From positions 86,114 to 150,113 of the forward strand of contig CAZVIN010000083.1 in assembly GCA_964627255.1 (NCBI GenBank): DNA of 64,000 nt, in the 5' to 3' direction. The DNA is from an uncultured Eubacteriales bacterium. Its GTDB lineage: Bacteria; Acidobacteriota; Aminicenantia; Aminicenantales; CALLJL01. The stretch's first letter is position 1; each line of letters begins with the position of its first letter. The notes under the pieces were generated by a model. That model worked only from the letters and a program-made list of their open reading frames with translations, did no database searches and was not told where the DNA came from. The translations under genes and the position numbers were made by a program. Positions 445 to 59,245 of the stretch are shown here, one piece after another.

Positions 445-2496
445 ATGCCCAAGCTTAGCTTTTTCCGAAGAGAAGCTCTTTTTAAAATGTTTCTTGACTT
501 ACCGCTCAGAACTAAATTCATTTTAAGTTTTCTCGTGGTTATTGGCTTCGGTGGTTTATTTTCGCTTTTCTTCGGGACGCGCTTAGAACATCGGACTATC
601 TTTTCCTTGGCCCAGGCTAAGGTTCGTCATGACCTGGATTCTGCCAGGACCGTTTATCAAGAAAAAATTAACGATATCCGCGACATCGTGCAGCTTAATT
701 CTATTCGTGACTCTATCCAACGAGCTCTTCTCAGCCAGGACCGCCAACTTCTTCTACGGCAGCTTGGCCGTATCAGGCAGGAATTCAAACTGGACATACT
801 AAACGTCGTTGATGCTCAAGGAATAGTCATGTTAAGAACGAGGAATCCTGAAATTTACGGCGACGAGTTGGCCTCCGACCCTATTATTTCTATAGCGCTC
901 AAAGGAGAGATAACGAATGGCACAGGGGTAGTATCGCGGGAAGTTCTGTTGCGTGAAGGCGAAGAGCTGGCATCGCAAGCCTATATTAAATTTATTCCGA
1001 CCCCGCGGGCTACTCCCAAGGCAGAAGACCACGAAGAAAATGGCCTGATGCTTTTAGCGGCTGCGCCGATATGGGATGGCCAGGGAAAGGTAGCCGGCGT
1101 TTTATATGGCGGCCTTCTTCTCAATCGTAATTACGGCATTGTCGACCGGGTTAAAGATATTGTCTTTAAAGGGGAGAGATATAAGGGAAAGGAAATCGGT
1201 ACGGTGACCATTTTCCAGCACGACCTCCGTATTTCAACCAATGTTACCGACGAATTCGGTGAGAGAGCTATTGGCACGAGGGCTTCTCAGGAAGTAGCCG
1301 AAACAGTCCTCGACCGGGGCGAGCCATGGATTGGCCGGGCTTTTGTCGTTAACCATTGGTACATTGCCGCTTACGAACCGATCCGAGACGTAACGGGAGC
1401 AATTATTGGAATGCTCTACGTCGGCATGTTGGAAAAGCCATATATCGACCTGAGGAACCGCGTTATGTTGACCTTTACTGGCCTTGCCGGACTCTGTGCC
1501 GTAATTCTGCTTGTTATCCTTTCGAGTATTACCTCAACTATTATTAACCCTTTGCAACGGATGGTTCAGGCAACTCAGAAGATTGCTCATGGCGAGCTTA
1601 ATCACAAGGTGGCGATTGACTGGCGAGATGAAATTGGCCAATTAGCTGAATCTTTCAACCGCATGACTGAAGACCTGAAAGCCGCCAATGAGAATTTAGT
1701 CCAGTGGAGTAAAACCTTAGAGAGAAAAGTCGAGGAAAGGACGCGAGAATTAAAGGAGATGCAGGATTATCTTATCCAGTCCGAAAAGCTGGCTTCCTTA
1801 GGCAAAATGGCCGCCGGCATTGCTCATGAAATCAACAATCCTTTGACCTCAATTTTAATTAACGCTCATCTTCTTTTGGAAAAACTGGCCAAGACCGAAA
1901 AAAAAGACGAATTTTACGAAAATCTTAGCCTCATTGCCGAAGAAACAGCGCGTTGTAGCCAAATAGTCCGTGGTTTACTCGAGTTTGCCCGGCAGAGTCC
2001 ACCCCAAAAGGATTTTATCGATATCAACGATTGGCTCGAAAAAACGGTGACGCTTCTGGAAAATAAAGCCTCGTTTCAAAACATCAAAATTGTTAAAAAT
2101 TTTGACCCGAACTTGCCGCTAATTCGGCTTGACCGTTCCAAAATTCAGCAGGTTTTTTGGAATCTGATGGTTAACGCCTGTGAAGCCATGCCCAGGGGAG
2201 GTCAATTAACTATTGTGACACAGTTGGCCGAAAATAAAAAGGCGATTGAAGTTAGCTTTATTGATAATGGAGTCGGTATTCCCGCCGAGAATCTCAATAA
2301 GATTTTCGACCCCTTTTTTACTACTAAAGCCAGCGGCACTGGCCTTGGCTTAGCTATCTGTTATGGCATTATTCAGCAGCATCAAGGTCTGATTGAGGTT
2401 AAAAGTGAAGTGGGGCGAGGAACGGTCTTTACTTTAATTTTACCCTTAGAAACCAAAAGTAATAATCAGATAACAGGAGGAACTTCTGATGACTGA
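445..2496 (+). CDS. Sensor histidine kinase (N-terminal TM, periplasmic Cache-like sensor, second TM, HAMP, HisKA, HATPase_c)
   Basis: H-box '[18 protein letters not shown]', N-box '[12 protein letters not shown]' and G-boxes 'DNGVGIP' / '[12 protein letters not shown]' are present. Two hydrophobic segments flank an extracellular domain of about 280 aa. The stop overlaps the start of the next gene by 8 nt. Confidence 0.85.
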
Positions 2497-3265
2497 AAAA
2501 GAGAAAAGGAAAATTCTGGTGGTTGACGATGAAATTACTGTCTGCAAAAGTATTCGCCAAGCAATACTAAGTGAGGGCCAGGAAGTGGACATGGCATTGA
2601 GCGGAGAGGAAGCCCTAACCAAAGACCGAGAGAAGCGGTATGACTTAGTTATCACCGATTTAATGATGCCAGGAATAAGCGGTCTTGACCTGTTACGGGA
2701 AATTAAAGTAGCGCATCCGGAAGTCAAAGTAGTGATGATTACTGGATATCCCACGATTAAGACAGCGGTTGAGTCAATCAAATTAGGTGCCTTTGATTAC
2801 ATCCCTAAACCATTTACGCCCGCTGAATTGAGAGCCTTAGTGGTACGAGCCCTCAAACAGGCAGAAACCGAGACTAGTACAGAAGCCACAGCGGTCGAAG
2901 CCAAAATTCCTGCTGGCTATTATTACCTCATCGGTCATACCTGGCTCAAATTAGAGACAAGTAATTATGGCCTGGTGGGAGTAACGCATGATTTTTTAAG
3001 AAGCGTCGGGATAATCATGCACCTCGAGCTTCCCAAAATTGGCGATACTCTTTCGCAAGGCGAAGTATGTGCCAAGATTACTGATGCCGACCGCTTCCAC
3101 CACCGCATCTGGTCTCCCGCTTCAGGCCGAGTAATTGAGGTAAATACTGCTTTGCTTCATGATTTCTCTTTATTGCGGCGCTCGCCCTACAACGAAGGCT
3201 ATCTATTTAAGATTGACCTCGTTGCCTTGGAGGAAGACCTAAAGGGTCTTTTGCAAGCTAAGTAG
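2489..3265 (+). CDS. Response regulator: N-terminal receiver domain fused to a C-terminal glycine-cleavage H-protein (GcvH)-like domain
   Basis: REC motifs 'ILVVDDE', 'DLVITDLMMPGISG' and 'VMITGY' are present. The C-terminal half 'GHTWLKLE...VGVTHDF...LELPKIGDTLSQGEVCAKITDADR...SPASGRVIEVNTAL...SPYNEGYLFKI' matches the GcvH fold signature (HxW, SG.V.EVN, PY..GW-like tail). Confidence 0.75.
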   Translation: MTEKEKRKILVVDDEITVCKSIRQAILSEGQEVDMALSGEEALTKDREKRYDLVITDLMMPGISGLDLLREIKVAHPEVKVVMITGYPTIKTAVESIKLGAFDYIPKPFTPAELRALVVRALKQAETETSTEATAVEAKIPAGYYYLIGHTWLKLETSNYGLVGVTHDFLRSVGIIMHLELPKIGDTLSQGEVCAKITDADRFHHRIWSPASGRVIEVNTALLHDFSLLRRSPYNEGYLFKIDLVALEEDLKGLLQAK

Positions 3266-3279
3266 CGCCTTTAATTAAA

Positions 3280-6200
3280 ATGTCACTGGCTGGGAGCCGA
3301 CCATTTTTTGATAGCGAAGAGACTTTTTCGCGAATTGTGAATTCGCTTTTAGAGGAGCTGCCCGAGCACGCCATTTTTTTCTTAAACCCGAAGGGAAATT
3401 GGCAAAAAAGCCCTCGCAGCTGGGAAGAGAGAATAAACCATGAATTCCTTTACCGCCTGAAAACAGAAGCGCCGATTGTCCGGAAAAATTTTATTCAAAT
3501 AACATATGGTTGTCTTAAGAACCCTGATTTTTTATCTCTGGTCCAAAAAATTAGCTCGCTTTGGCTGGAATCTTCATTTCCCTTAGAGAATTGGCTGACC
3601 CTGCCCCCCGAATTGCAAGAAGAGCTAAGGCCTTCCATTCTAAGTGCGGTTTGGAATCAGAAACGGTTTAGCGAGGACGCGAGGATTTTTATAAATTTTA
3701 TCCGACTCGTAACTAATATAATTTTATCCCGTTGTTTAGAACTAAATAGTACTCTTCCTGTTCCTGATTGGGACGTTCAGGTTCGGGAGGTCAAGTCATA
3801 TTTCTGGCACAGAAGACGGGCCTGGGAGGAAGGAGAAGCGGGTCGTTTTTCTTTGAAAGAAAAAGAGCTTTTTTTTGAGCTACGCCAGATTATCGCGGGT
3901 TCGCTGGCTGGCCTAATTGCTCCGATTGCGCAATTAGTGGCTGAAGAGCAAAGAATTTCCTTAATTTTAGTTAATCTTTTTCGAAAGCTTAAAACATCGT
4001 CGGACAAAGAAGAGATTTATCAGACAATTATCGAGAAATGGCGGCCAGCTATGGGAATAGTCGCCAACCTCTCTTCCTCTCTTTTCTTTCTTTCTCTTTG
4101 TCTTTTAATTCTTCCCGATATTGAGTTATCCAGCGGCCTCCAATACGCGGCCTCGGTAAACCTTAGCCTGTTTCGTGATAAACGTTCTACTGACTATTTG
4201 CTTTATGCCTTAGAAAAATTGCCGATAATCAACACTAAAATAAGGGAAAACATTATTTACACCCTTGGCTGTTTAAAGGAAGCGAGAGCTGTGCCGCTTG
4301 TAGCGCAAATTTTAGAACAACCCGATTTTTGGCCTGAGTCTGATTTAAAAGAAGCCAGAATTTGCCCGCTGCAAGAGCAAAAAGAAGAAGCTATCTGGGC
4401 CTTAGGAAAGATTGGCTTGGCCGCGGTCAAAGCAATCCCCATCCTTTCTTTTTATGCTGAACACCCCTCGGCTAAACTAAAAACTTATTTGGCCTGGGCT
4501 TTGGGTGAGATTGGTCGGGCTCAAAAGGAAAATTCTGGCGGAATAAGCGCTGACCTGCTGATAGCCCTCCTAAGACTGCTCAAGGAAAAAAATAAAGAGG
4601 TTTTCGAAGAGGCCACGAGTGCCTTGAAAAAAATTCAAATGCCCGAGTTTATCCACAATCTTTATCTTTATCATGTGGGGGCAGTCAACCTTTTGAGTTT
4701 AAAGCCAGCCACTACTGGACTTAATGAGCTTTCTGCAACCCTAAATCATTTATTGACCAAGAAGAAAAGGACAGTGATGGTGGTAACAGGAGATTCAGGG
4801 ACGGGGAAAACCTATTTTTGTCAGGTTCTGGCTAAAGGTCTGGCTGGCGTCAAGCCGGCGGAAATTCTTTATCTCATGCGAGATTCTAAAAACGGCCGAA
4901 AAATCTTTAACCGTCTTTTAGGCCTAAACTGGCTCAAGCGCTATATTGACCCGGCCTATTATCAGCCTGAATTGACTGACGAGACTACCGCTGACTCTGA
5001 GACCTTTTGGTCGAGCTTTTTAGAGACTCATAAAGATAAAAAATTCATTTTACTCGATGGTTGCCGGGACCGTCATTATTTCCAGCGAGTTGTTGACCTG
5101 TTTTATGAAAGAGGCGAACTCGACGTGGTTGTCAACTTTAGGGCCAATTTCTCCACCCGCCGTCTTAACCTCGAAGCCAGAGAGGTGGCTTTAGAAAGCG
5201 TCCGGCTTCACCTTTCTTTTCTCGAAGAACCGGCTCTGGAGGACACGTATTTCTATCAAGAGGGAAAAACGATCCTTTATGACCTGGATAATTCGGAAAA
5301 TTCGCGGCTCAATCAGGACGAAATAACCGAGCTCTTTTCTCCGAGAGTGATTCCTCGCTGGGAGGAGTTTATTCAGCTCGGCACTTTTAAATATGAACAA
5401 AACATCCCCCTTACCTCTGAAGAAAAAATAGATTCTCAAGAGGCTTCATTGCAAGCTGAGGTTTCTGAGTGGCCAGAATCTCAAGTGTCCTCGCTTCGGC
5501 CAGAAGAACAAATACTAACAATTCAGTTGAATGAAGCTCTCGCCGCCGAACCCAATTTGCTTTACATTCTACCTTTGACCAAGTTAAAGCCGGAGCGGCT
5601 TCAATTTTATGCTCAAGAACAAGTTGGCGGTGTCGATGAAGACGGTGCAATTTTTGTTCTAACTCTTCTTGACCATCGTCTCTTCCGCGTGCCACTGCAC
5701 CCGAAGCCCGCGACTTTTGCTATCCTCAATCAAGCTTTCTACTTAGTGGATGAATTGGGTGGCCTAGTGAGTGTTTCTTTGGAAAAAGAAGAAAAAATTA
5801 ATTATCGCCTCTCAGGGTCAGCTATTTCTGGTCTTGCCGCCATCCCGCCCGACTGTATTTTAGCGGCGGAAAAAAATGGCCTAATTCGGCTTTGGAACTT
5901 CGAAGAAAAGAAACAGGAGCGTTTAAACCTGGAGGTTGGGCCTATTAACTCCCTGGCCTCGGCCCCAGGAAGAAATGTCTATTTATCCACGGCGACGGAT
6001 ATTATTTGTTTAAATTGGGAAAAAGGGGTCATTAATCGGATGCGCTTAGCAGGTGAGACGCCTAAATCTATTTATACTGTATCGAAGGACAAAATTATAG
6101 CCGTGGTGAGCAGAAAAAATGACACTGAATGGGGCCTGAGGTTTATTAATTTTGATCGAGGGGTGGGCACGACTCTTTGGCTTCCTGGGACCAAAAGGAT

Positions 6201-6486
6201 AAAGACCTTAGCCCCTCTTTTAGACGGCCGGGTGGTTATTATTTGCCAACAGGATAGTAAATCATTCAATGAAGGCCCCACTCTTTTTGTTCTAAATCCA
6301 GAAGGAGATTATTTTTCATTAGCCAGAGTAAATAGACGGCCCATTGAGATAAATGACCTGCTTATTTTAGGCCCAAGAATTCTAACGTGTGGTCTCGAAT
6401 CCAACGGTCAAGGTTCTTTTCGCCTCTGGGGAAGCGAATTTTTTGTCCGAGCGGAAAGAAGTAAACTAAAAATTAAGCCCTTTTAA
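3280..6486 (+). CDS. Large multidomain protein: N-terminal helical region, HEAT/PBS-lyase-like repeats, PRK/uridine-kinase-like P-loop domain, C-terminal WD40-like beta-propeller
   Basis: HEAT-like repeats occur around 'EARAVPLVAQILEQPDF...EAIWALGKIGLAAVKAIPIL...LKTYLAWALGEIGRA' (about nt 4240-4640). Walker A 'VVTGDSGTGKTYF' (nt ~4786-4815) resembles the phosphoribulokinase/uridine-kinase motif GDSG(C/S)GK(S/T)TF. The C-terminal ~330 aa contain WD-like strands ('NGLIRLWNFEEKK', 'GSFRLWGSEFF'). The gene sits 15 nt downstream of the response regulator gene. Confidence 0.7.
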   Translation: MSLAGSRPFFDSEETFSRIVNSLLEELPEHAIFFLNPKGNWQKSPRSWEERINHEFLYRLKTEAPIVRKNFIQITYGCLKNPDFLSLVQKISSLWLESSFPLENWLTLPPELQEELRPSILSAVWNQKRFSEDARIFINFIRLVTNIILSRCLELNSTLPVPDWDVQVREVKSYFWHRRRAWEEGEAGRFSLKEKELFFELRQIIAGSLAGLIAPIAQLVAEEQRISLILVNLFRKLKTSSDKEEIYQTIIEKWRPAMGIVANLSSSLFFLSLCLLILPDIELSSGLQYAASVNLSLFRDKRSTDYLLYALEKLPIINTKIRENIIYTLGCLKEARAVPLVAQILEQPDFWPESDLKEARICPLQEQKEEAIWALGKIGLAAVKAIPILSFYAEHPSAKLKTYLAWALGEIGRAQKENSGGISADLLIALLRLLKEKNKEVFEEATSALKKIQMPEFIHNLYLYHVGAVNLLSLKPATTGLNELSATLNHLLTKKKRTVMVVTGDSGTGKTYFCQVLAKGLAGVKPAEILYLMRDSKNGRKIFNRLLGLNWLKRYIDPAYYQPELTDETTADSETFWSSFLETHKDKKFILLDGCRDRHYFQRVVDLFYERGELDVVVNFRANFSTRRLNLEAREVALESVRLHLSFLEEPALEDTYFYQEGKTILYDLDNSENSRLNQDEITELFSPRVIPRWEEFIQLGTFKYEQNIPLTSEEKIDSQEASLQAEVSEWPESQVSSLRPEEQILTIQLNEALAAEPNLLYILPLTKLKPERLQFYAQEQVGGVDEDGAIFVLTLLDHRLFRVPLHPKPATFAILNQAFYLVDELGGLVSVSLEKEEKINYRLSGSAISGLAAIPPDCILAAEKNGLIRLWNFEEKKQERLNLEVGPINSLASAPGRNVYLSTATDIICLNWEKGVINRMRLAGETPKSIYTVSKDKIIAVVSRKNDTEWGLRFINFDRGVGTTLWLPGTKRIKTLAPLLDGRVVIICQQDSKSFNEGPTLFVLNPEGDYFSLARVNRRPIEINDLLILGPRILTCGLESNGQGSFRLWGSEFFVRAERSKLKIKPF

Positions 6487-6557
6487 TTTTCATATTTTTG
6501 TAAAATAAGCTGCAAAGCTAATCACTTTGAATTTTCGAGCCCACAAGAAGGAATATT

Positions 6558-7946
6558 TTACAGAGAGCGAAATGACTCTATCTCTTCTATTGATTTTGGG
6601 ATTCTTTTGCCCAACACCCGATGCCCCTGAGGTGTGACCAAAACATCATCTTCAATCCGAATACCGCCAAAATTAATATAATCCATTACTTTCTCATAAT
6701 TAATGAAAGCGGTGTGTTTCTTTTCTTTCTTCCATTTAGCAATGAGGGCGGGAATAAAATAAATGCCAGGTTCAACTGTTAGCACAAAGCCTGGCTCTAA
6801 CTTCCTTGCCAGGCGGAGGTAAGCTAAGCCGAACTGGTCGCTGCGCTGGAAGGATTCATCATAACCCACATATTTTTCTCCCAAACCCTCCATATCATGG
6901 ACATCTAAACCGAGCATATGGCCCAAGCCATGAGGAAAGAAAAGGGCGTGGGCGCCAGCGGCAATCGCTTCTTCCACCTCGCCTTTCATCAAGCCTACAT
7001 CTTTTAGGCCCGAAGCTATAACCCGGCAGGCCTGAAGATGAACGTCTTTATAAGGAATTCCGGGTTTAATGGCCAAGATAGCTGTTTCTTGAGCTTGCAG
7101 GACTATTTCGTAAATATCTCGCTGTTTCCGGGTAAATTTCCAGCCAACGGGTAAAGTCCTGGTAATATCTGAGGCATAATGCTCCTTGGATTCAACGCCG
7201 GCATCCATAACCAGCAGTTTCCCCCTCTCTAAACGATGGCTATGCTCATGATTATGCAGAATCTGGCCATTAATGGTTAAAATTATAGGAAAAGCCTGGT
7301 GACATCCCTGGCTTAAGCCCACAGCTTCCATGGCGGCCACCAATTCCCATTCCAGCCTTCCAGGCTGAGCCATTTTCATGCCCGCAAGATACATCTCACG
7401 GGTTAAACTGAGAGCCGCCTCGATTTCCTTTACCTCTAACTCATCTTTAACGGCTCTTAAAGCCACTGTAGCTTTGATCAATTCTTCGGAGGCTCCCGTT
7501 TTGATTTCTTTGGGCGATTTTTTTAAAAGTTGGGCTAAATCAACCACCGTCTCTGAGCGATAAGGCGGGAGATAATGCACCCGACGACCAGCAGCAAGAG
7601 CTTTTTCTATGAATGGCTCTATTTCCTTAAGAGGTAGAACTTCTTTGATGCCAGCTTTTCTTGCCTTTTCAGTTAATTTGGGCTGATGGCCCATCCAGAT
7701 AATGTCTTCTAAGGAAAGTTCATTGCCAAAAATAATTTCTTTGCCTTCATCGAAATCAATCAGACCGACCAAGTCCGGACTATCTATGCCGAAAAAATAG
7801 AGGAAGGAACTATCTTGTCGGAAATGATACGTATTAGCCGGATAATTCATCGGGGCCTCTTTATTACCCCAGAAAAGAGCCAAACCCGAACCTAATTTCT
7901 TTTTTAAGGCTTCACGGCGTTGCCGATAAACTTTGCTTTCAAACAT
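6558..7946 (-). CDS. pepP: Xaa-Pro aminopeptidase / prolidase (peptidase M24B)
   Basis: M24 metal-ligand context 'HGLGHMLGLDVHD', 'VLTVEPGIYF' and 'IRIEDDVLVT' is present, with an N-terminal creatinase_N-like region. Confidence 0.85.
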   Translation of the reverse strand: MFESKVYRQRREALKKKLGSGLALFWGNKEAPMNYPANTYHFRQDSSFLYFFGIDSPDLVGLIDFDEGKEIIFGNELSLEDIIWMGHQPKLTEKARKAGIKEVLPLKEIEPFIEKALAAGRRVHYLPPYRSETVVDLAQLLKKSPKEIKTGASEELIKATVALRAVKDELEVKEIEAALSLTREMYLAGMKMAQPGRLEWELVAAMEAVGLSQGCHQAFPIILTINGQILHNHEHSHRLERGKLLVMDAGVESKEHYASDITRTLPVGWKFTRKQRDIYEIVLQAQETAILAIKPGIPYKDVHLQACRVIASGLKDVGLMKGEVEEAIAAGAHALFFPHGLGHMLGLDVHDMEGLGEKYVGYDESFQRSDQFGLAYLRLARKLEPGFVLTVEPGIYFIPALIAKWKKEKKHTAFINYEKVMDYINFGGIRIEDDVLVTPQGHRVLGKRIPKSIEEIESFRSL

Positions 7947-8128
7947 ATTAATACCTCCCTTAACCGAGATGAAAGGAGTTTTATATCAAATTATCCGAAA
8001 CATCGCAAGTTGAATTAAATATTGTGGACAAAATATCACATTTTATGCTGATAGGACCAGAGAAATACGAATAAGTTTTTTTAAATTTTATCTTTTCCTT
8101 ATTGAAGGGACTAAGATTGAATTATCAT

Positions 8129-10492
8129 TTAAAAAGCTTCGTGTTCAGTGCGGCGGATAATTTCGTCCTGTAGTTCCTTGCTCAAGTCAACAAAATAATC
8201 GCTAAAACCAGCGACCCGAACAATTAGGTCTCGGTATTTTTCGGGGTAGCGCTGCGCTTCCCGCAGAGTTTCGGCTGTGACCACGTTGAGCTGAATGTGG
8301 TGGCCGTCAAGCCGGAAATAGGTTCTGATAAGATGTGCCAGGTTTTTGAGCCCGTCTTCTGTAGCTAAAAGTTGCGGCGTAAATTTTTGATTAAGCAAAG
8401 TTCCGCCTGTCCGAAGATGGTCGATCTTGGCCACGGACTTTATTACGGCTGTCGGGCCTTTGCGGTCAGCTCCCTGAACCGGGGAGACTCCCTCGGAAAG
8501 GGGTTGGTGCGCTAAGCGGCCGTCGGGAGTTGCGCCGGTCATCTTGCCAAAATAGACATGAACTGTTGTCGGTAAAAGGTTAATGCGATAAGTCCCGCCC
8601 TTCAAATTCGGCCGACCGTTAACTGCCCGGTAATAAATTTCAAATACTTGTCGGAGTAGGCTGTCGGCATAATCATTATCATTTCCATACTTAGGTGTTT
8701 TATTCAGCAGGACTTGGCGCCAGGCCTCAGAACCTTCGAAGTTACGGGACAAAAGCTCCAGAAATTCAGCCATCGAGGTCGACCGTTTATCAAAAACATG
8801 GAAGCGAAGGGCGCTTAAGGAATCAGTAATTGTGCCCATCCCAACCCCCTGGATGTAAGAGGTATTATAGCGGGCACCTCCGTCATGATAATCTTTGGCT
8901 TTGTCAATACAGTCGTCGATCAGCAAGGAAAGGAACGGGGCGGGCAGATATTCCGCATAAATCCTTTCGATAATGTTGTTGCCACGAATTTTAATATCAA
9001 TAAAATGTCTCACCTGCCGCTCGAAAGCCAACAGCAGCTCGTCGAAAGTTTTAAAATTTCTGGGGTCTCCAGTTTCCAAGCCGATTTTTTTGCCGGTCCT
9101 GGGGTCAATGCCGTTGTTCAGTGTGATTTCAAGGACCTTGGGCAGGTTAAAATATCCTGTCAAGATGTAAGCTTCCTTCCCAAAAATTCCAGCCTCCACA
9201 CAACCGCTCGCCCCACCCGACCGAGCATCTTCCAAAGATTTTCCTTGACGCAGCATTTCCTGAATGATGGCGTCGGTGTTAAAAATAGACGGCTGGCCGA
9301 AACCAGTTTTAAGGATTTTTAGAGCGCGCAACAGGAATTCGTCCGGGGTCTTTTTACTGATTTGCACCATCGAGCTGGGCTGGATGAGACGCATTTCTTC
9401 AATCACATCCAATATTAAGAAAGAAAGTTCATTGACTCCATCCGCGCCGTCATTTTTAACCCCGCCCAGATTAATCAGGCAAAAATCAGTATAGGTGGCG
9501 CTTTCTTCCGCGGTGACACCCACCTTAGGAGGAGCGGGCTGATTATTAAATTTAATCCAGAAGGCCTGGAGCAGCTCTCTCGCCTTTTCTTCCGTCAAAG
9601 TGCCTTCTTCTAACCCCTTTTTATAAAAAGGATAAAGATGCTGGTCTAAGCGGCCAGGATTAAAGGAATCCCAAGTGTTGAGTTCGGTTATAACCCCAAG
9701 ATGAACAAACCAGTAATATTGCAGAGCTTCCCAAAAATCACGGGGCGGGTTTTCGGGTACCCAAGAACAAATTTCAGCCAGGCGTTCCAACTCGGCCTTC
9801 CGCTGAGGGTCTTTTTCTTCGGCAGCTAATGCTCGGGCTTTTTGGGCATAGCGGTGGGCATACATGATGAGAGCGTCCGCCACAATTTCCATGGCCTTCA
9901 ACTCTTCCCTTTTTTTTAAGACTTCCGGGTCATTGAATTCATCCAGCCGGCGTCTTGAAGCCGCGATATCCCTTTTTAGGTCCTTAAAGCCCTTCCGGTA
10001 TATTTTATCGTCTAAGACTGTATGGCCTGGAGCCCGCTGCTCCATGAACTCGGTGAAGATGCCAGCTTCATAGGCATCTTTCCATTCCGCGGTCATCTCC
10101 GCAAAGATTTTTTCTCTGATTGTTTTCCCTTGCCAAAAAGGAATGATTTTTTCTCTATAGATTCTTTTTGTTTCCTCCTCTACCAGAAAGGGGGTTTTGC
10201 GACGGCTGTTAAGAATCTCTAAATCCTGTAAAGAATGGCAGGTGACCTCAGGATAAGTCGGAGTGGCCTTAGGAGCCGGCCCTCTTTCGCCGACAATAAG
10301 CTCGCCTTCGTCGAGCCAAAGAGCTTTTTTTTCTAAGAGATGACGAAAAGCCAGAGCTCTTTTTACCGCCGGAGAAAGGGTCGGGTCATTATTCTCTTGA
10401 TAAAATTCAGTCAAAAGCAAGGCTCTTTCGGGAGTGATATAAGGTTTAGTGTTAAGACTCTTTTCCCTGAGACGGGCAATTCTTTGATTCAT
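8129..10492 (-). CDS. Glycyl radical enzyme, PFL2/eliminase-like family (787 aa); substrate unknown
   Basis: C-terminal glycine-radical motif 'RVAGFSDYFVDL'. Thiyl-radical loop 'SGGASGCVEAGIFG' (Cys-x-Glu as in glycerol/choline/hydroxyproline-type eliminases, not the CC of pyruvate formate-lyase). Size and layout match the PFL2 family. Confidence 0.85.
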   Translation of the reverse strand: MNQRIARLREKSLNTKPYITPERALLLTEFYQENNDPTLSPAVKRALAFRHLLEKKALWLDEGELIVGERGPAPKATPTYPEVTCHSLQDLEILNSRRKTPFLVEEETKRIYREKIIPFWQGKTIREKIFAEMTAEWKDAYEAGIFTEFMEQRAPGHTVLDDKIYRKGFKDLKRDIAASRRRLDEFNDPEVLKKREELKAMEIVADALIMYAHRYAQKARALAAEEKDPQRKAELERLAEICSWVPENPPRDFWEALQYYWFVHLGVITELNTWDSFNPGRLDQHLYPFYKKGLEEGTLTEEKARELLQAFWIKFNNQPAPPKVGVTAEESATYTDFCLINLGGVKNDGADGVNELSFLILDVIEEMRLIQPSSMVQISKKTPDEFLLRALKILKTGFGQPSIFNTDAIIQEMLRQGKSLEDARSGGASGCVEAGIFGKEAYILTGYFNLPKVLEITLNNGIDPRTGKKIGLETGDPRNFKTFDELLLAFERQVRHFIDIKIRGNNIIERIYAEYLPAPFLSLLIDDCIDKAKDYHDGGARYNTSYIQGVGMGTITDSLSALRFHVFDKRSTSMAEFLELLSRNFEGSEAWRQVLLNKTPKYGNDNDYADSLLRQVFEIYYRAVNGRPNLKGGTYRINLLPTTVHVYFGKMTGATPDGRLAHQPLSEGVSPVQGADRKGPTAVIKSVAKIDHLRTGGTLLNQKFTPQLLATEDGLKNLAHLIRTYFRLDGHHIQLNVVTAETLREAQRYPEKYRDLIVRVAGFSDYFVDLSKELQDEIIRRTEHEAF

Positions 10493-10494
10493 CC

Positions 10495-11403
10495 TTAACC
10501 TCCTATGGAGATAGGCAATTTAGTTTTATTAAAAAAATGGGCGATTTTTTCCATGGATTCAAGCGAAGGCTTTTTAAGCTCAGCTAATTGATAACTGCGG
10601 CCCAAGCGGGTGTATTTTTCCTTACCAAAAGAATGGTAAGGCAAAAGCTCTATGCCCTTAATCGGGGGGAGAGAGGAAATAAAAGAGGCCATCTGAACTA
10701 AATTGGCTTCATCATCATTGATTGAGGGAACGACGGGAATGCGAATAACGACTTTATCTGTGAGCCGAGCTAAGCTTATCAGGTTTTCTAATATTAGTTC
10801 ATTTCTTAAACCTGTAGCTAAGCGGTGTCTTTCCGGGTCCATTAATTTCAGGTCATAAAGAAAGAGGTCGACCAACGTCCAAATTCGCTTGAAAACTTTA
10901 AAGGGGGCATAGCCTGAGGTATCAACTGTGGTTGAGAGCCGATTTTTCTTGCTGAGTTCGAGAAGTTCCTCTAAGAACTCAGCTTGAAGAAGCGGTTCAC
11001 CTCCAGAGAAGGTCACGCCGCCCCCAGATTCCTCATAAAACGGAGAATCCTTCATGACCTCGGCCATTACTTCAGCAGCCGTCATTTTCTTGCCTACTAT
11101 TTCCAGGGCTTCTGAGGGGCAAATCTCGGCACAGAGGCCACAACAATCGCAGCGTTGCGCCTCGATTAGGGGCGAGACGCCGGGTTTAGAGATTGCCCCT
11201 TGAGGGCATTTTTCTAAACAGAGCTGACAGCCATCAAGGCAGCGGTTGAGTCGAAGCATAAGCTCTGGTCCGATTTTTTGGCCCTCTGGATTATGGCACC
11301 AGAGGCAGCGAAGGGGGCAACCTTTGAAAAAAATAGTTGTTCGAATTCCAGGTCCGTCGTGGAGGGCGTACTTTTTGATGTCGAACACAATCCCCTGAGT
11401 CAA
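10495..11403 (-). CDS. Glycyl-radical enzyme activating enzyme (radical SAM, with extra ferredoxin-like Cys clusters)
   Basis: 'CPLRCLWCHNPE' CxxxCxxC radical-SAM motif, plus 'CxxCxxxC' ferredoxin-type clusters ('CDCCGLCAEICP'). 302 aa. Lies 2 nt upstream of the glycyl radical enzyme on the same strand. Confidence 0.85.
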   Translation of the reverse strand: MTQGIVFDIKKYALHDGPGIRTTIFFKGCPLRCLWCHNPEGQKIGPELMLRLNRCLDGCQLCLEKCPQGAISKPGVSPLIEAQRCDCCGLCAEICPSEALEIVGKKMTAAEVMAEVMKDSPFYEESGGGVTFSGGEPLLQAEFLEELLELSKKNRLSTTVDTSGYAPFKVFKRIWTLVDLFLYDLKLMDPERHRLATGLRNELILENLISLARLTDKVVIRIPVVPSINDDEANLVQMASFISSLPPIKGIELLPYHSFGKEKYTRLGRSYQLAELKKPSLESMEKIAHFFNKTKLPISIGG

Positions 11404-12092
11404 AGTTCACCCCCAGTCGCGGTTTTTTCTACCGGGTAATATTTTAAGATATAACTTTTTTGAACTTCGAAGGACCAGTGGACGTCCCGAATAAATCGGG
11501 CGGCCGCCTCATAATCCTTTCGTTGCAGAAAACCGAGCAGATGTTCATGCTCCCTTATTGAGGCTTCCTCCCATTCCCGGATATAGGCTGGCTGACGGGG
11601 AAAATCGTAAAGTCTTTTTTTGAGGGTGTTGACGATGCGATTTAATTCGGGATTATGACAACGGGATAAATAAACATTATGAAATTCAAGATTACGCTCA
11701 TAATAGGTATCAAAGTCGTCTCGGCTGAGAGCTTTTTTCATTCCTTCAACAAGCTTTAACATGGTTTCTAAATCTTTTTCGCTGATGCTAGGACCAGCTC
11801 TCAGAATAGCCAAGCTTTCCAAGGCACCGATGACCTCATAGGCATTTTTAATCTCCTCAAGAGTGAGCGGGTTGACTATTACCCCCCGCCGTGGTTTGAT
11901 CGTCACAAAGTTTTCCATAGCTAATTGCAGAAGAGCATCTCTTAAGGGAGTCTTGCTGATTCCCAGCGATTGGGCTGTTTCCTCCATCTTGATTTCTTCA
12001 CCTGGTTTTAGCCTACCGCGGCGTAACTGGAGCCGGAGATAATCGTAGACCTGTTCTTTGAGAGATTTAAAAGTTAGCCGAGGATTACGCAT
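11400..12092 (-). CDS. GntR-family transcriptional regulator (FadR/FCD-type C-terminal domain)
   Basis: N-terminal winged HTH 'EETAQSLGISKTPLRDALLQLAMENFVTIKPRRGVIV'. Helical C-terminal FCD-like domain. ATGA overlap with the activase gene. Confidence 0.8.
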   Translation of the reverse strand: MRNPRLTFKSLKEQVYDYLRLQLRRGRLKPGEEIKMEETAQSLGISKTPLRDALLQLAMENFVTIKPRRGVIVNPLTLEEIKNAYEVIGALESLAILRAGPSISEKDLETMLKLVEGMKKALSRDDFDTYYERNLEFHNVYLSRCHNPELNRIVNTLKKRLYDFPRQPAYIREWEEASIREHEHLLGFLQRKDYEAAARFIRDVHWSFEVQKSYILKYYPVEKTATGGEL

Positions 12093-12101
12093 CGTCGTTT
12101 T

Positions 12102-12128
12102 TATATCTGATATGTAAAATATCAGATA
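12102..12128. promoter_or_regulatory. Perfect 11-bp inverted repeat ATATCTGATAT-N5-ATATCAGATAT; candidate GntR operator
   Basis: Read directly at 12102-12128, about 10-35 bp upstream of the GntR start codon (12092, minus strand). GntR/FadR operators are typically palindromes of this size. Confidence 0.5.
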
Positions 12129-12318
12129 TTAGAGCTTTTGTCAAGTCTTTTTTCCCTCTGCGCCCTAATCAATTCATTCAAATGATATTAAAAAAATCTT
12201 TTCCGGAGGCAAAGATTTTCACCTCCAGGCTCAAACTCTGAGAGAATAAGACCTTCTTTTTTGGATTTTTATTTCCGGTTCAAAAAACGATAGGCTGGGC
12301 GGTGGGAATTCCTTCTAT

Positions 12319-12675
12319 CTAAGGGCGGAGTTGGGTGAAAAATTGGCTGATTTCAGCCGTCACAAAAGGCTTATTGATAATTCCTAAGTGCGGAACCTGA
12401 CGGGCTCTATTTAAAATTAGCTCATCATTATAGGCTGTAATATAAACAAGCTGGTAAGGACCGTTGGCTTGAATTATCTTAGCGGCCTCGATGCCATCCA
12501 GTCTTCCTTTTAGTTTAATATCCATAAAAATCAGGTTTGGCCTTTTTGTCTTAAGCCAGCTTAAACCCTCTTCGGCCGAAGAGGCCACCTGAACTTCCTT
12601 AGCGCCAAGAGAACGGACGAGAAAAGCCAAATCCATGGCCACTATGGCTTCATCCTCGATGATTAAGACTCGCAT
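12319..12675 (-). CDS. Single-domain response regulator (CheY-like receiver)
   Basis: 'MRVLIIEDEAIVAMDL...IFMDIKLKGRLDGIEAAKII...LVYITAY'. The likely start is the internal Met; the six-frame ORF extends to 12720. Confidence 0.75.
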   Translation of the reverse strand: MRVLIIEDEAIVAMDLAFLVRSLGAKEVQVASSAEEGLSWLKTKRPNLIFMDIKLKGRLDGIEAAKIIQANGPYQLVYITAYNDELILNRARQVPHLGIINKPFVTAEISQFFTQLRP

Positions 12676-12783
12676 CGGGAAAAACTCGCCATTTCGGGCA
12701 ATAAAAATAGATGAAACCATATAAAATTCACCAATAATTAAGTCGCATAAGGAAGGAGAATTTCGGAAACTTAGTTAAAAAAA

Positions 12784-12858
<75 letters not shown>

Positions 12859-12975
12859 TTCTTCGAAATTATACCACATTTTTTGCTCCTGTCAAAGGAG
12901 AATACTCTTTAGACCAAAGATTTTTAATCTTGTTTGACAAAATTTCTTGACATCGATTTTTAATCATAAATATAA

Positions 12976-13485
12976 TTGATGGCCGAAAAAATGGCTGCGT
13001 TCTTATTTTTCCTTTTCGCCATCGTTAGTTTGGCCGCAATTATGGGGATGATCTTTTCTCGGCACCAAGCCCACAACGCTCTTTTCTTGGCCGTAGCATT
13101 CACCGCCTTAGGCGGCCTCTTTGCCTTGCTTAATGCTCCCTTTATTGCGGCGGTTCAAATTATTATTTATGCCGGCGCCATCATGGTCCTTTTTATATTT
13201 GTGATCATGATGATCGACCTTCGTCAGCCTTTACCGGCTGCCAAGAAAAGATGGATATATTGGCTTGGCGCGGGGCTCATGATTGTTGTCCTCACAGAAC
13301 TACTTTTTGTTCTGCGTTCTCTTCCTTCGGTCAACAGCAGCGCCGAGCCTGATTTTGGTAGCCCGAGGGCCTTGGGACAAATTCTTTTCACTAAATATCT
13401 TTATGCTTTTGAAATTACTTCCATCCTCATCGTGGCCGCCCTTGTCGGCTCTCTTTATTTAGCACGCAGGAAGGAGAAGGACTAA
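12976..13485 (+). CDS. nuoJ: NADH-quinone oxidoreductase subunit J
   Basis: Hydrophobic 169-aa protein with the NuoJ/ND6-like pattern. First gene of a tightly packed J-K-L-M-N series. Confidence 0.75.
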   Translation: MMAEKMAAFLFFLFAIVSLAAIMGMIFSRHQAHNALFLAVAFTALGGLFALLNAPFIAAVQIIIYAGAIMVLFIFVIMMIDLRQPLPAAKKRWIYWLGAGLMIVVLTELLFVLRSLPSVNSSAEPDFGSPRALGQILFTKYLYAFEITSILIVAALVGSLYLARRKEKD

Positions 13486-15694: not shown

Positions 15695-17311
15695 ATGAAT
15701 CTACCAATAATTTCGTTAATCACTTTTTTGCCTCTGGCCGGTGCGGTTATCCTCATTTTTATTCCAGGCGAAAGAAAAGAATGGTCCCGGCTTATCGCCC
15801 TTTTGGTTTCGGTTGTCACGTTCGGGCTGTCCCTTGTTCTTCTGGTTAATTTTGACGCCAGCCAAGCTGAACCTCAATTGGTCGAAAAGGCGGCTTGGCT
15901 TGGCTACGGCATTAATTATCATGTTGGGGTTGACGGATTGAGTTTGCTTCTGATTCTTCTCACTACCTTCCTCTTCCCCATCGCCATTCTTTCAGGCTGG
16001 CGCTACATTGACCAGCGAGTCAAGGAATATCATTTATTCTTGCTCTTTTTGGAGACCGGGATTATCGGAGTATTCGTCGCCTTGAATCTGTTCCTTTTTT
16101 ATGTTTTCTGGGAAGTGATGCTTATCCCGATGTATTTTCTAATCGGTCTTTGGGGAGGCCCGCGGCGAATCTACGCTACCATCAAATTCGTTCTTTTTAC
16201 CATGCTGGGAAGCTTACTCATGCTAGTAGCGATATTTGTTCTTTATAGCTTCTACTACCGGGCTACCGGTATTTATTCCTTCGAATTCGCCGACCTGACC
16301 AAAATGATCCTTCTGCCCAAGGTACAAACTTGGCTCTTCTTAGCTTTTGCCTTGGCCTTTGCGATTAAGGTTCCGATGTTTCCATTCCATACCTGGTTAC
16401 CCGACGCCCACGTGGAAGCACCCACCGCGGGCTCTGTTATCCTGGCGGCCGTCCTCCTCAAGATGGGTGTTTATGGTTTTTTAAGGTTGGCTATGCCTCT
16501 CTTTCCTCAGGCTTTGGCCAAGTTCACTCCCTGGTTGATGGTTTTAAGCCTGATAGGGATTATTTACGGCGGCCTAATGGCCCTGATTCAAAAAGATGTT
16601 AAATCCTTGGTAGCCTATTCAAGTGTTAGCCATATGGGCCTTATTATGTTAGCCCTTTTTTCTCTCAATCCGGAGGCTATCGAGGGTTCGATAATTCAGA
16701 TGGTTAATCATGGGTTGAGCACGGGTGCGCTGTTTTTGATTGTGGGCATTCTTTATGAAAGAGCGCATACGCGGCTGATCAAAGATTACGGAGGCGTCAG
16801 TCGGCAGATGCCGGTTTTATCAGCTTTCTTTTTAGTTTGTATGCTTTCCTCCTTAGGCCTACCAGGGCTAAACGGCTTTGTCGGCGAAATCCTCTGCCTT
16901 TTTGGCGTCTTCCAGGTTAATAAGGTAATGGCTTATTTTGCGGTCAGCACAGTTATTTTGGCGGCTGGCTATCTTTTGTGGATGTACCAGAGAGTCATGC
17001 ATGGGCCAATCGTTCATGATTATGTCCGCTCGTTTCGCGACTTGAACAAGCGCGAAATTATATATTTAGCGCCGGTGGTTCTGATGATGTTCTGGATTGG
17101 CCTCTATCCTAATTTTTTCCTGAGAAAAATGGACACCTCAGTTAATCTTTTCCTTAAGAAAATTCAGGAGCGACAAAAATATTTTGTGTTCCACGCACCG
17201 CCCCACCCGCTAGTGTCCGTTGTTTCTGAAAGTGCTGATTTAAGTGATGGCCTCATCCTCAATAATCAATCAGAGGAAAACGCTAATAACAAGGGAATAA
17301 AGAAGCCATGA
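15695..17311 (+). CDS. nuoM: NADH-quinone oxidoreductase subunit M
   Basis: 538 aa antiporter-like subunit (ND4 family), 'WLPDAHVEAPTAGSVILAAVLLKMG'. Confidence 0.8.
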   Translation: MNLPIISLITFLPLAGAVILIFIPGERKEWSRLIALLVSVVTFGLSLVLLVNFDASQAEPQLVEKAAWLGYGINYHVGVDGLSLLLILLTTFLFPIAILSGWRYIDQRVKEYHLFLLFLETGIIGVFVALNLFLFYVFWEVMLIPMYFLIGLWGGPRRIYATIKFVLFTMLGSLLMLVAIFVLYSFYYRATGIYSFEFADLTKMILLPKVQTWLFLAFALAFAIKVPMFPFHTWLPDAHVEAPTAGSVILAAVLLKMGVYGFLRLAMPLFPQALAKFTPWLMVLSLIGIIYGGLMALIQKDVKSLVAYSSVSHMGLIMLALFSLNPEAIEGSIIQMVNHGLSTGALFLIVGILYERAHTRLIKDYGGVSRQMPVLSAFFLVCMLSSLGLPGLNGFVGEILCLFGVFQVNKVMAYFAVSTVILAAGYLLWMYQRVMHGPIVHDYVRSFRDLNKREIIYLAPVVLMMFWIGLYPNFFLRKMDTSVNLFLKKIQERQKYFVFHAPPHPLVSVVSESADLSDGLILNNQSEENANNKGIKKP

Positions 17312-18744
17312 ATCAATTAGCTTCTCTCGCCCCTCTGCTTCTGGTGCTTCTGGCTTCACTACTTATCCTTCTTTTAGAAGCCTTCGGCCGCTGGTCTCAA
17401 CGCATCTGGCACGCCACGGTCGCCATCACGGCGCTGATTGGCTCAATATTCCTGGCTCTTAATTGGTGGGAAAAAACAGCTACCTACTTTTCTGGTGCTT
17501 ACATAATGGATAATGTGGCGATTATTTTTATGGTCCTTTTTTCCTTAGCCGGAATCTTGGTCATTCTTCTTTCTTTCCCTTATATGGTTGACCATGGTTT
17601 TAACCGTGGAGAGTTCTTCTCTTTGCTCCTTTTGGCCATTACCGGTTTGATGATTATGGCTTCCTCTGAAGACTTGGTCGTTATTTTTCTCGGTCTAGAA
17701 ACATTGTCGGTAGCGAGTTATGTTTTGGCCGGGATGAAAAAACACGACGAAAAGTCATCGGAAGCAGCCATCAAATATTTTCTTTTGGGCAGTTTGGCTT
17801 CAGCCTTTATTGTTCTTGGATTAGCCTTTTTTTCGGCGCAAAATCAGAGTTTAAACCTGCAAGAGTTGACTTCGCTGGCGACTGATAAGCTGGAATCACC
17901 TCTTTTTCTCGCCGGTCTTTGCCTTCTCCTTGTTGGTTTCGGTTTTAAAGTGGCCCTGGTTCCGTTTCACATGTGGACGCCTGACGTTTATCAGGGAGCG
18001 CCGACGCCTATTACCGCCTTTTTTTCCGTCGGGCCCAAGGCGGCGGGTTTCCTGGTCCTTTTTAGACTTTTTTATTCCATTATGAAAATAGAGGCAGATG
18101 TTAGCAGTATTCAGACCATCCTTTGGATTTTGAGTGTCCTGACGATGGTCGTTGGTAATTTGATTGCGCTTCGCCAGAAAAATGTGAAGCGGCTTTTAGC
18201 TTATTCTTCAATTGCCCACGCTGGCTACCTCGCTATTGCTCTTTTATCTCGTGATGGCCAGGGTTTAACCTTTTATTTACTGGCTTATCTTTTTATGAAC
18301 GTCGGGGCCTTTGCCGTTCTGGTAGCCTTGAGTGCCAAGGGACAGGAATTTCATGAACTAGAAGATTTCAACGGCCTGGGAGAACGAAGGCCGTGGCTGG
18401 CAGCGGCCATGTCAGTTTTTCTTCTTTCTCTGGCGGGCTTCCCGCCGACCGCCGGGTTCTTGGCTAAATTTTATATCTTCAGCACGGCGGTGAAGCAGGG
18501 TTTTACCTCATTAATCATTATCGCTGTCCTGGCCTCCTTAGTCTCGGTTTATTATTACCTGCGAGTAATCGTTCATATGTATATGATCAAAGAGGCCCCT
18601 GCTCTACCTGCTATGAAAGCTGAACCACCTCTTCTTCTGATCGTCATCTTTTTCTGTCTATACGGCGTTTTTCAGTTAGGTCTCTTTCCTGCCAGATTGA
18701 TAAGTCTCATTCGCCAAGCTCTGACTACTTCTTCTCTCCCCTAA
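17308..18744 (+). CDS. nuoN: NADH-quinone oxidoreductase subunit N
   Basis: 478 aa antiporter-like subunit (ND2 family). Start overlaps the nuoM stop. Confidence 0.8.
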   Translation: MNQLASLAPLLLVLLASLLILLLEAFGRWSQRIWHATVAITALIGSIFLALNWWEKTATYFSGAYIMDNVAIIFMVLFSLAGILVILLSFPYMVDHGFNRGEFFSLLLLAITGLMIMASSEDLVVIFLGLETLSVASYVLAGMKKHDEKSSEAAIKYFLLGSLASAFIVLGLAFFSAQNQSLNLQELTSLATDKLESPLFLAGLCLLLVGFGFKVALVPFHMWTPDVYQGAPTPITAFFSVGPKAAGFLVLFRLFYSIMKIEADVSSIQTILWILSVLTMVVGNLIALRQKNVKRLLAYSSIAHAGYLAIALLSRDGQGLTFYLLAYLFMNVGAFAVLVALSAKGQEFHELEDFNGLGERRPWLAAAMSVFLLSLAGFPPTAGFLAKFYIFSTAVKQGFTSLIIIAVLASLVSVYYYLRVIVHMYMIKEAPALPAMKAEPPLLLIVIFFCLYGVFQLGLFPARLISLIRQALTTSSLP

Positions 18745-19063: not shown

Positions 19064-19456
19064 TTGGTTGGAGCCGACCGTAAGCCGAATTCTGTTCTCG
19101 CCGACTGGCGGGCGAGGGCGGTTATTCGTCTTGTCTTCTGATTGCTCAGAAGCTTAAGCGACCTACCCGCCCCCAGGAGGCGGGCCACCTCAACGGGGGC
19201 CTGTTTGGTCTTGCTCCGGATGGGGTTTGCCTTGCCCCTGATGTCACCATCAAGGCGGTGAGCTCTTACCTCGCCGTTTCACCCTTGCCTGAGGAAACTT
19301 AATAAGCTTCCCTTCGGCGGTCTGTTCTCTGTGGCACTTTCCTCCGGTCACCCGGAGTCGCGGTTAGCGACCATCCTGCCCTGTGGAGTTCGGACTTTCC
19401 TCCCCTCCTTTATCTGAAGACGAAGGAGGAGCAACCGCCTCATCGGCTCCAACCAC
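19064..19456 (-). ncRNA. rnpB: RNase P RNA, bacterial type A
   Basis: The reverse complement contains the universal P4 and flanking blocks 'GGAGGGGAGGAAAGTCCGAAC', 'AGGGTGAAACGGCGAGGTAAGAGCTCACC', 'ACAGAATTCGGCTTA' and 'CCGGAGCAAGACCAAACAGG'. The P1 helix pairs TTGGAGCCGA at the 5' end with TCGGCTCCAA at the 3' end. Confidence 0.9.
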
Positions 19457-35171: not shown

Positions 35172-35265
<94 letters not shown>

Positions 35266-38335: not shown

Positions 38336-38429
<94 letters not shown>

Positions 38430-59157: not shown

Positions 59158-59245
59158 GCCGAAGTGGTGGAATTGGTAGACACGCTAGCTTGAGGGGCTA
59201 GTTCCCGTTAATATGGGAGTCGGGGTTCGAGTCCCCGCTTCGGCA
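59158..59245 (+). tRNA. tRNA-Leu (GAG)
   Basis: GCCGAAGTGGTGGAATTGGTAGACACGCTAGCTTGAGGGGCTAG-(long variable arm)-CGGGGTTCGAGTCCCCGCTTCGGCA. Anticodon loop TTGAGGG. Confidence 0.85.

Follow-up and report, generated by a model that had tools for sequence, protein, structure and literature searches.

The stretch analysed here (the window) is 64,000 nucleotides (nt) of contig CAZVIN010000083.1 (assembly GCA_964627255.1), from an uncultured Eubacteriales bacterium that GTDB places in the Aminicenantales, and our subject is a minus-strand gene cluster in its first part that encodes a GntR/FCD regulator, a glycyl radical enzyme activase, a glycyl radical enzyme and, further downstream, an M24B Xaa-Pro peptidase (Table 1). 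The first three genes follow one another closely, the stop codon of the regulator gene sharing four nucleotides with the start codon of the activase gene (TTGA, 11400-11403), and the activase stop codon standing 2 nt from the ATG of the glycyl radical enzyme gene. An earlier note, made from the sequence alone, had described this gene order, with the coordinates, sizes and tight junctions of the open reading frames (ORFs), and all of these are as it described. Its further view, that the enzyme is uncharacterised and of unknown substrate, has to be given up: by every sequence-level criterion of membership the enzyme is HypD, trans-4-hydroxy-L-proline dehydratase, and this is its predicted activity.

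Table 1. Features of the HypD locus and of the gene block on its downstream side, in window coordinates.
Feature	Position	Strand	Description
HypD, trans-4-hydroxy-L-proline dehydratase (predicted)	8129..10492	-	787 aa; Pfam PFL-like and Gly_radical domains
Glycyl radical enzyme activase	10495..11403	-	302 aa, TTG start; Pfam Radical_SAM and Fer4
GntR/FCD regulator, FadR subfamily	11400..12092	-	230 aa; Pfam GntR 54.9 bits, FCD 75.8 bits
M24B Xaa-Pro peptidase (prolidase / aminopeptidase P type)	6558..7946	-	462 aa; Pfam AMP_N and Peptidase_M24
HypD-peptidase intergenic region	7947..8128	-	extended -10-like TTGATATAA about 35 nt before the peptidase ATG
Sigma-70-like promoter	12116..12144	-	-35 TTGACA 12144-12139, 17-nt spacer, extended -10 TGaTATTTT (hexamer 12121-12116)
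Candidate operator, 26-bp near-palindrome	12106..12131	-	TAATATCTGATATTTTACATATCAGA; overlaps the -10 box and likely transcription start
Terminator-like hairpin	12190..12228	-	11-bp stem 12228-12203, U7 run 12196-12190; after the upstream response-regulator gene
sCache/HAMP histidine kinase	445-2496	+	block gene 1
Response-regulator receiver fused to glycine-cleavage-H-like (GCV_H) domain	2489-3265	+	block gene 2
HEAT-repeat protein	3280-6486	+	block gene 3; 1068 aa

Three lines of evidence agree on the assignment to HypD, namely scores on hidden Markov models (HMMs), scores against PDB entries and the identity of active-site residues. The enzyme reaches 1309.9 bits on NF043068, the NCBIfam equivalog for trans-4-hydroxy-L-proline dehydratase, whose cut-off is 1100; residues 2-785 of 787 are aligned, and the subfamily model TIGR01774 is passed as well. 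Identities as a B12-independent glycerol or diol dehydratase, CutC, HpsG/HpfG or PFL were considered and rejected, the specific cut-offs all being missed by far; among the other substrate-specific models for glycyl radical enzymes, HpsG (sulfopropanediol dehydratase) gives 596 bits for a cut-off of 1000, HpfG 553 for 1000, CutC 542 for 1050 and PFL 143 for 994. A phmmer search of the PDB returns HypD of Clostridioides difficile (6vxc/6vxe) as the top match at 1073 bits, with glycerol dehydratase (594 bits) and CutC (528 bits) lower, as are the enzymes acting on hydroxyproline derivatives, HpyG (8id1) at 501, HpzG (8iof) at 470 and HplG (7vua) at 459 bits. By these scores HypD is the characterised glycyl radical enzyme nearest to the window protein, the two proteins being 57% identical over 782 residues with a single 1-residue gap, and the hint in the earlier note that hydroxyproline dehydratase matches the 787-residue enzyme in size was right. 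A false lead is thereby removed, as the enzyme is HypD and not an orphan, and standard NCBI annotation rules would give it that name automatically.

The active site has been described in detail for the C. difficile enzyme, in which Cys434-Val435-Glu436 is the Cys loop and Gly765 the radical site, Asp278, His160 and Asp339 are the acid-base residues, Ser334, Tyr450 and Thr645 bind the carboxylate, Phe340, Phe152 and Trp277 pack around the ring, and Arg156 and Lys326 balance charge (PMC7077986). All 15 of the published catalytic and binding residues (in C. difficile numbering F152, R156, H160, W277, D278, K326, S334, D339, F340, C434, V435, E436, Y450, T645 and G765) are identical in the window protein, where by alignment each number is lower by 3. 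The same positions are nearly invariant among 78 homologues from a set of 80 related loci, which were collected by scanning a single genome for each species and had their ORFs clustered. The Cys loop of the window enzyme is GCVEAG (residues 430-435), with Cys431 as the thiyl radical residue and Glu433 completing the Cys-x-Glu (CXE) loop, so the earlier call of the CXE 1,2-eliminase class is confirmed. Its glycyl radical motif is RVAGFS, with the radical on Gly762. The next residue, Phe763 (window 8204-8206), is unique in the clade, 77 of the 78 homologues having Tyr here (RVAGYS). The fingerprint of the superfamily at this site is RVxG[FWY], which Phe fits. The earlier note had proposed inspecting the substrate-binding residues, and had named as grounds against its own view a place within a clade of known specificity combined with an identical active site; this is what the HMM score, the PDB scores (1073 against 594 bits) and the 15 identical residues give.

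The activase carries its cluster motif CX3CX2C as C29/C33/C36, together with two ferredoxin-like Cys clusters, CLDGCQLCLEKCP and CDCCGLCAEICP, and its gene adjoins HypD in 64 of the 80 related loci. It passes the general glycyl radical enzyme activase model TIGR02494 (354.5 bits, cut-off 174), while its best specific model, the HypD-activase equivalog NF043069, gives 383.3 bits and the cut-off of 425 is missed. A radical S-adenosylmethionine motif, auxiliary clusters and adjacency to the partner are the general marks of such activases, and the predicted protein has all three.

The activase score bears on the possibility that we are dealing with an enzyme of the HypD clade that acts on a related substrate, such as a hydroxyproline isomer, N-methylated hydroxyproline or hydroxypipecolate, in a variant of the pathway. 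The unusual Phe after the radical glycine and the lack of an adjacent gene for pyrroline-5-carboxylate (P5C) reductase would be in keeping with such a variant, and glycyl radical enzymes for hydroxyproline derivatives do exist (HpyG, HpzG and HplG). However, the residues that place the hydroxyl, amine and carboxylate of hydroxyproline are those of HypD at 15 of 15 positions, the scores of HpyG, HpzG and HplG are less than half that of HypD, and the cut-off of the HypD equivalog is beaten by 200 bits, so that we regard a substrate other than trans-4-hydroxyproline as quite improbable.

A separate observation on the Cys loop concerns three of the HypD homologues, in which it reads GCVTIS and not GCVEAG (L044 8001-10361, L049 8001-10361 and L076 1977-4337, from metagenome-assembled genomes (MAGs) labelled Heimdallarchaeota, Synergistetes and Bathyarchaeota, respectively). 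These proteins are without the CXE Glu and keep the remaining active-site residues, and the L049 locus also has a GntR gene and the operator described below. The CXE Glu is essential in C. difficile HypD by mutagenesis.

The regulator encoded by the first gene has TM0439 (3sxy) as its best solved relative. His138 and His181 fall opposite His residues of that protein; His205, which stands one residue beyond the aligned part and opposite the terminal His of the TM0439 chain, completes a metal-binding His triad. No NCBIfam model passes its cut-off on this protein, the best being phnR (87 bits, cut-off 271). An orthologue with 53-60% identity stands ahead of activase and HypD in nine related genome loci, the orthologues from genome and metagenome loci together span 44-61% identity to the window protein, and wherever enough downstream DNA is present the regulator gene is followed by those of the activase and HypD.

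The promoter ahead of the regulator gene matches the consensus in 10 of 12 positions and has the TG element, and its TTGACA is found at the same relative position in seven of nine orthologous GntR-linked loci. The 26-bp near-palindrome that overlaps it has a family consensus, TGATATCTGATATATTAGATATCAGA, and stands at the same position in eight other GntR-linked loci, one of them in a MAG labelled Synergistetes; we infer that it is the binding site of the GntR/FCD repressor. This conserved palindrome over the -10 box supports the claim of the earlier note that the operon is GntR-regulated. A precedent is offered by HypR, the name of FadR-subfamily repressors of aerobic hydroxyproline catabolism whose regulons in Proteobacteria also include proline peptidases; in Streptomyces coelicolor the operator of HypR (SCO6294) covers the -10 box of hypR itself. 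Because of the position and conservation of the operator and this HypR precedent, the window regulator most likely represses the operon, its own gene included, and by analogy hydroxyproline or a closely related metabolite would release it from the DNA.

The comparison with HypR (Sinorhizobium meliloti, Proteobacteria and S. coelicolor) is one of functional analogy only. Both regulators combine a winged helix with a six-helix FCD domain carrying a metal His triad, and the likeness would extend to autoregulation by way of an operator over the -10 box and to the control of hydroxyproline genes together with proline peptidases. The operators differ, that of the window being an AT-rich 26-bp palindrome and that of S. 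coelicolor HypR reading CTNTGC(A/C)ATGTCAC, and so do the pathways, an anaerobic radical dehydratase being placed under the window regulator where HypR controls an epimerase/oxidase route. In favour of the earlier interpretation, namely that an uncharacterised glycyl radical dehydratase or lyase handles an organic acid sensed by the FCD protein, it can be said that FCD-type GntR regulators usually bind carboxylates and that no reductase or microcompartment gene lies nearby. However, hydroxyproline is itself a carboxylate to which FCD-type HypR regulators respond, and the conserved neighbours are enzymes of proline and hydroxyproline. With the placement and active site of the enzyme already refuting it at the sequence level, we give this interpretation hardly any credence.

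To describe the reach of the operator, a position weight matrix (PWM) was trained on nine GntR-linked sites, that of the window included, and scanned over 1.17 Mb comprising the loci and the window. In 18 loci a hit of at least 18 bits lies just upstream of a GntR or activase gene, and a single hit of this strength (L069) lies elsewhere; the 18 include loci outside the training set in which no GntR gene is adjacent (L016, L024, L025, L039, L042, L045 and L074). A second scan, of metagenome contigs and by the DNA pattern ATATSTRATATATTASATATC alone, returned 80 loci, of which 27 adjoin an orthologue of the window regulator (at least 44% identity) and five more have the pattern directly before an activase gene, 32 of the 80 in total. 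The other hits involve paralogous GntR proteins (25-33% identity) by sodium:solute symporter (SSF) transporters, an aldehyde dehydrogenase/aminotransferase pair and unrelated genes. Thus, the palindrome belongs to a class of GntR-type operators and is not unique to the HypD regulon. What the locus does offer is a testable pair of regulator and operator, which might serve as a hydroxyproline-sensing part.

Two groups of these further sites deserve a description of their own. The same palindrome lies between divergent genes for an aldehyde dehydrogenase (529 aa) and a class-III aminotransferase (464 aa) at L147 7687-10972, L154 8403-11688 and L155 7273-10558 (coordinates in the orientation with the motif on the plus strand), with a GntR homologue 44% identical to the window regulator about 4.8 kb off, and this may be another regulon, for example one of omega-amino-acid catabolism, under a sister regulator. 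In the metagenome loci L084, L110, L114, L126 and L130, SSF genes of about 458 aa are preceded by a related palindrome, ATGATATGTAATATATTACATATCAT, and some of these loci have a distant GntR paralogue nearby (25-29% identity), which points to a larger family of GntR operators with such a shape.

Downstream of HypD, on the same strand and after a gap of 182 nt, begins the gene of the M24B peptidase. The earlier note had seen no companion dehydrogenase, reductase or microcompartment gene; this stands for the window ORFs of at least 120 aa that were scanned with Pfam (all but two of the nuo cluster), but the note overlooked the peptidase. The protein scores 98.4 bits on AMP_N and 171 bits on Peptidase_M24, and its nearest solved relative is human prolidase (199.8 bits), followed by aminopeptidase P of Escherichia coli (179 bits). 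With both of these (human PEPD and E. coli aminopeptidase P) it has in common the AMP_N domain, the M24 pita-bread fold and the five metal ligands (Asp, Asp, His, Glu and Glu), which align with those of human prolidase. The similarity to human prolidase amounts to only about 200 bits, and neither NCBIfam equivalog is reached (PepP 202 bits for a cut-off of 465, PepQ 180 for 339), so that the class (dipeptidase or aminopeptidase) and any cleavage of Xaa-Hyp bonds are putative. A peptidase orthologue lies inside the fetched flanks of 29 of the 80 related loci, in several phyla and mostly directly downstream of HypD. From this conserved gene linkage, its role is most likely to release hydroxyproline or proline from short peptides.

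The gap between the two genes (7947-8128) contains neither a terminator nor significant RNA structure, its fold being no better than that of shuffled sequence (z = +0.56). The extended -10-like element that it does contain belongs to a TGnTATA-like type that recurs in the orthologous gaps of L001, L009, L013 and L018. No second full operator was found before the peptidase gene, where the PWM stays below 18 bits and only a half-site-like ATGTGATAT accompanies the extended -10-like element. With no terminator in the gap and yet a possible promoter element, transcription may reach the peptidase gene from HypD, start at a promoter within the gap, or do both.

How closely the regulator and the peptidase are tied to HypD can be asked at this point, since the regulator might respond to another effector (a dipeptide, proline, P5C or a general nutrient signal) and the peptidase might be a housekeeping aminopeptidase P with a promoter of its own. 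The gap with its -10-like element, the missing full operator site by PWM and the equivalog scores of the peptidase can all be read in this way; similar palindromes serve paralogous GntR proteins, and even for S. meliloti HypR the effector may be D-hydroxyproline (D-Hyp) or a downstream metabolite. The conservation of the neighbourhood speaks for the closer tie, the peptidase orthologue recurring near HypD across phyla and the GntR orthologue leading into activase and HypD at every locus with enough downstream DNA, and the HypR regulons of Proteobacteria take in proline peptidases too. On balance we consider a loose association unlikely, although less so than the other alternatives.

The HypD homologues of the related loci are 66-77% identical to that of the window, and the nearest of them come from MAGs labelled Candidatus Aminicenantes or Aminicenantales (76-77% identity), or from "uncultured Eubacteriales" with the same synteny. 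Others belong to Anaerolineae, Calditrichota, Ignavibacteriota, Planctomycetota, Bathyarchaeia and further groups; that HypD is widespread across phyla has been reported before (PMC6219649). A 62-kb metagenome contig from JGI (sample 3300017449) encodes the identical HypD among the same neighbours. The nearest relatives (L001, L002 and L005) have the gene order GntR, activase, HypD, M24 peptidase and CN-hydrolase, an order that the window keeps save for a three-gene block described below.

In other members of the set the neighbourhood includes further genes of likely relevance to hydroxyproline. A gene of the proline racemase superfamily occurs in 10 of the 80 loci, with the motif DRSPTGTG and trans-3-hydroxy-L-proline dehydratase as its best model (below the cut-off), and a gene of the OCD/mu-crystallin family, which includes pyrroline-2-carboxylate reductases, occurs in nine. 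Neighbours of these two types lie at L028 10373-12466, L036 3462-5507, L041 4987-7136, L046 12957-14823, L001 5242-6270 and L004 5239-6285, and they suggest a combined locus for 4-hydroxyproline and 3-hydroxyproline utilisation in these relatives. In the window, tblastn found no gene of either type and matched only the CN-hydrolase fragment at 2-286. A Pfam scan of the 134 operon-chain ORFs of the 80 loci brought out no other recurrent partner and no P5C reductase; sulfatases, ferredoxins, DUF6305 and EamA proteins each occur in three to five loci. Likewise, Pfam finds no P5C reductase, proline reductase, P5C dehydrogenase or microcompartment gene among the window ORFs of at least 120 aa (the nuo-cluster ORFs at 15695-17311 and 17308-18744 apart). 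In Clostridia, the usual arrangement has proC, the P5C reductase gene, adjacent to HypD (PMC6219649).

Taking these results together, we think it very probable that the locus is an anaerobic operon for hydroxyproline utilisation, made up of HypD, its activase, a GntR-type repressor and an Xaa-Pro peptidase. The pathway we propose would begin with the M24 peptidase, whose gene linkage suggests that it frees hydroxyproline or proline from short peptides of collagen or of plant or algal glycoproteins. The activase would then use S-adenosylmethionine to take a hydrogen from Gly762, the radical would move to Cys431, and the C5 hydrogen of hydroxyproline would be removed, after which the network of Asp275, His157 and Glu433 would help water to leave from C4, giving (S)-pyrroline-5-carboxylate. 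This radical dehydration is established in C. difficile HypD (PMC7077986), and we extend the chemistry, from the activase step to P5C, to the window enzyme because the residues involved are fully conserved. The P5C formed would be handled by genes elsewhere, either by P5C reductase to proline or by P5C dehydrogenase to glutamate. The GntR/FCD protein would bind the palindrome over the -10 box and, by analogy with HypR, be let go by hydroxyproline or a related metabolite.

Several of the observations above weigh against this picture of a hydroxyproline operon. The activase falls short of the HypD-activase equivalog (383 against 425 bits), the peptidase falls short of both of its own, and the latter is parted from HypD by 182 nt that may contain a separate promoter. 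The enzyme has Phe in place of Tyr after the radical glycine, differing in this from 77 of 78 homologues, and no P5C reductase gene is nearby, unlike in Clostridia. Finally, the occurrence of the palindrome beside paralogous GntR genes and unrelated genes makes the motif class wider than the regulon.

Seen against known systems, the window locus is an ordinary operon whose key enzyme is known, and its differences from the clostridial paradigm are variations within that system. It has in common with C. difficile HypD (PDB 6VXC/6VXE; Levin 2017; Backman 2020) the length class, the Gly loop, the CXE loop and an adjacent dedicated activase. It differs in having no adjacent proC, in the Phe after the radical glycine, in being preceded by a GntR gene with a candidate operator and followed by a prolidase-type peptidase gene, and in its host, an uncultured sediment-type bacterium. 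Glycerol dehydratase, CutC, HpyG/HpzG and HplG resemble the window system in fold, in the Gly and Cys loops and in the two-cluster type of activase, whereas the window enzyme has Ser331 (Phe in the others), Asp275 and Asp336, and their bit scores are about half that of HypD.

Within the searchable literature, we found no paper specifically on the operator, on regulators of HypD or on the linkage of HypD with a prolidase, and we regard the conserved operator and the peptidase linkage as modest additions. In Aminicenantes-like bacteria HypD would be tied to a GntR repressor and a peptidase, not to P5C reductase as in Clostridia. The locus supports the idea that anaerobes outside the gut commonly use hydroxyproline from collagen and from plant or algal glycoproteins. 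A bolder proposal makes the GntR/FCD protein an "anaerobic HypR", the first regulator dedicated to the glycyl-radical route of anaerobic hydroxyproline use. It would read the 26-bp palindrome TGATATCTGATATATTAGATATCA that is conserved before HypD operons of Aminicenantes and other sediment phyla, and would link HypD to a prolidase-type peptidase and, in relatives, also to a trans-3-hydroxyproline branch. We judge the chances of this to be about even. If it is true, peptide-bound hydroxyproline would be a significant substrate for uncultured sediment fermenters.

The surroundings of the operon differ on its two sides. Downstream, the three plus-strand genes of Table 1 (445-6486) part the M24 peptidase gene from the CN-hydrolase fragment on the minus strand at the left edge of the window, and this block looks like an insertion, because the peptidase and CN-hydrolase genes are adjacent in L001, L002, L005 and L017. 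The fusion of a receiver to a GcvH-like domain in the second of these genes is an unusual architecture. Immediately upstream of the operon lies a gene for a stand-alone receiver protein of 133 aa (12319-12720, minus strand), kept in position in L001, L002, L004, L005 and L017 with 41-46% identity. The terminator-like hairpin that follows it (RNA fold of -17.4 kcal/mol, z = -1.8) is weak evidence for a boundary, which would separate this response-regulator gene from the GntR promoter. Across 6300-13000, Rfam finds no riboswitch or other structured RNA except a tRNA.

Among the related loci, L043 (from a MAG labelled Pirellulales) has at 7300-7700 a second HypD C-terminus (…LIVRVAGYSDYFVDL…), frameshifted and internally deleted and 3 kb downstream of the intact gene, which is a degraded duplicate and not a spare glycyl-radical domain. 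Elsewhere in the window, a bacterial class A RNase P RNA (19066-19450, minus strand, 308 bits) overlaps the last 87 nt of a sigma-54 activator ORF on the same strand (19364-20824), so that either the stop of the called ORF is placed too far downstream or the two genes truly overlap. The tRNA genes of the window lie at 12785-12858, 35175-35265 and 38341-38428 on the minus strand and at 59158-59245 on the plus strand.

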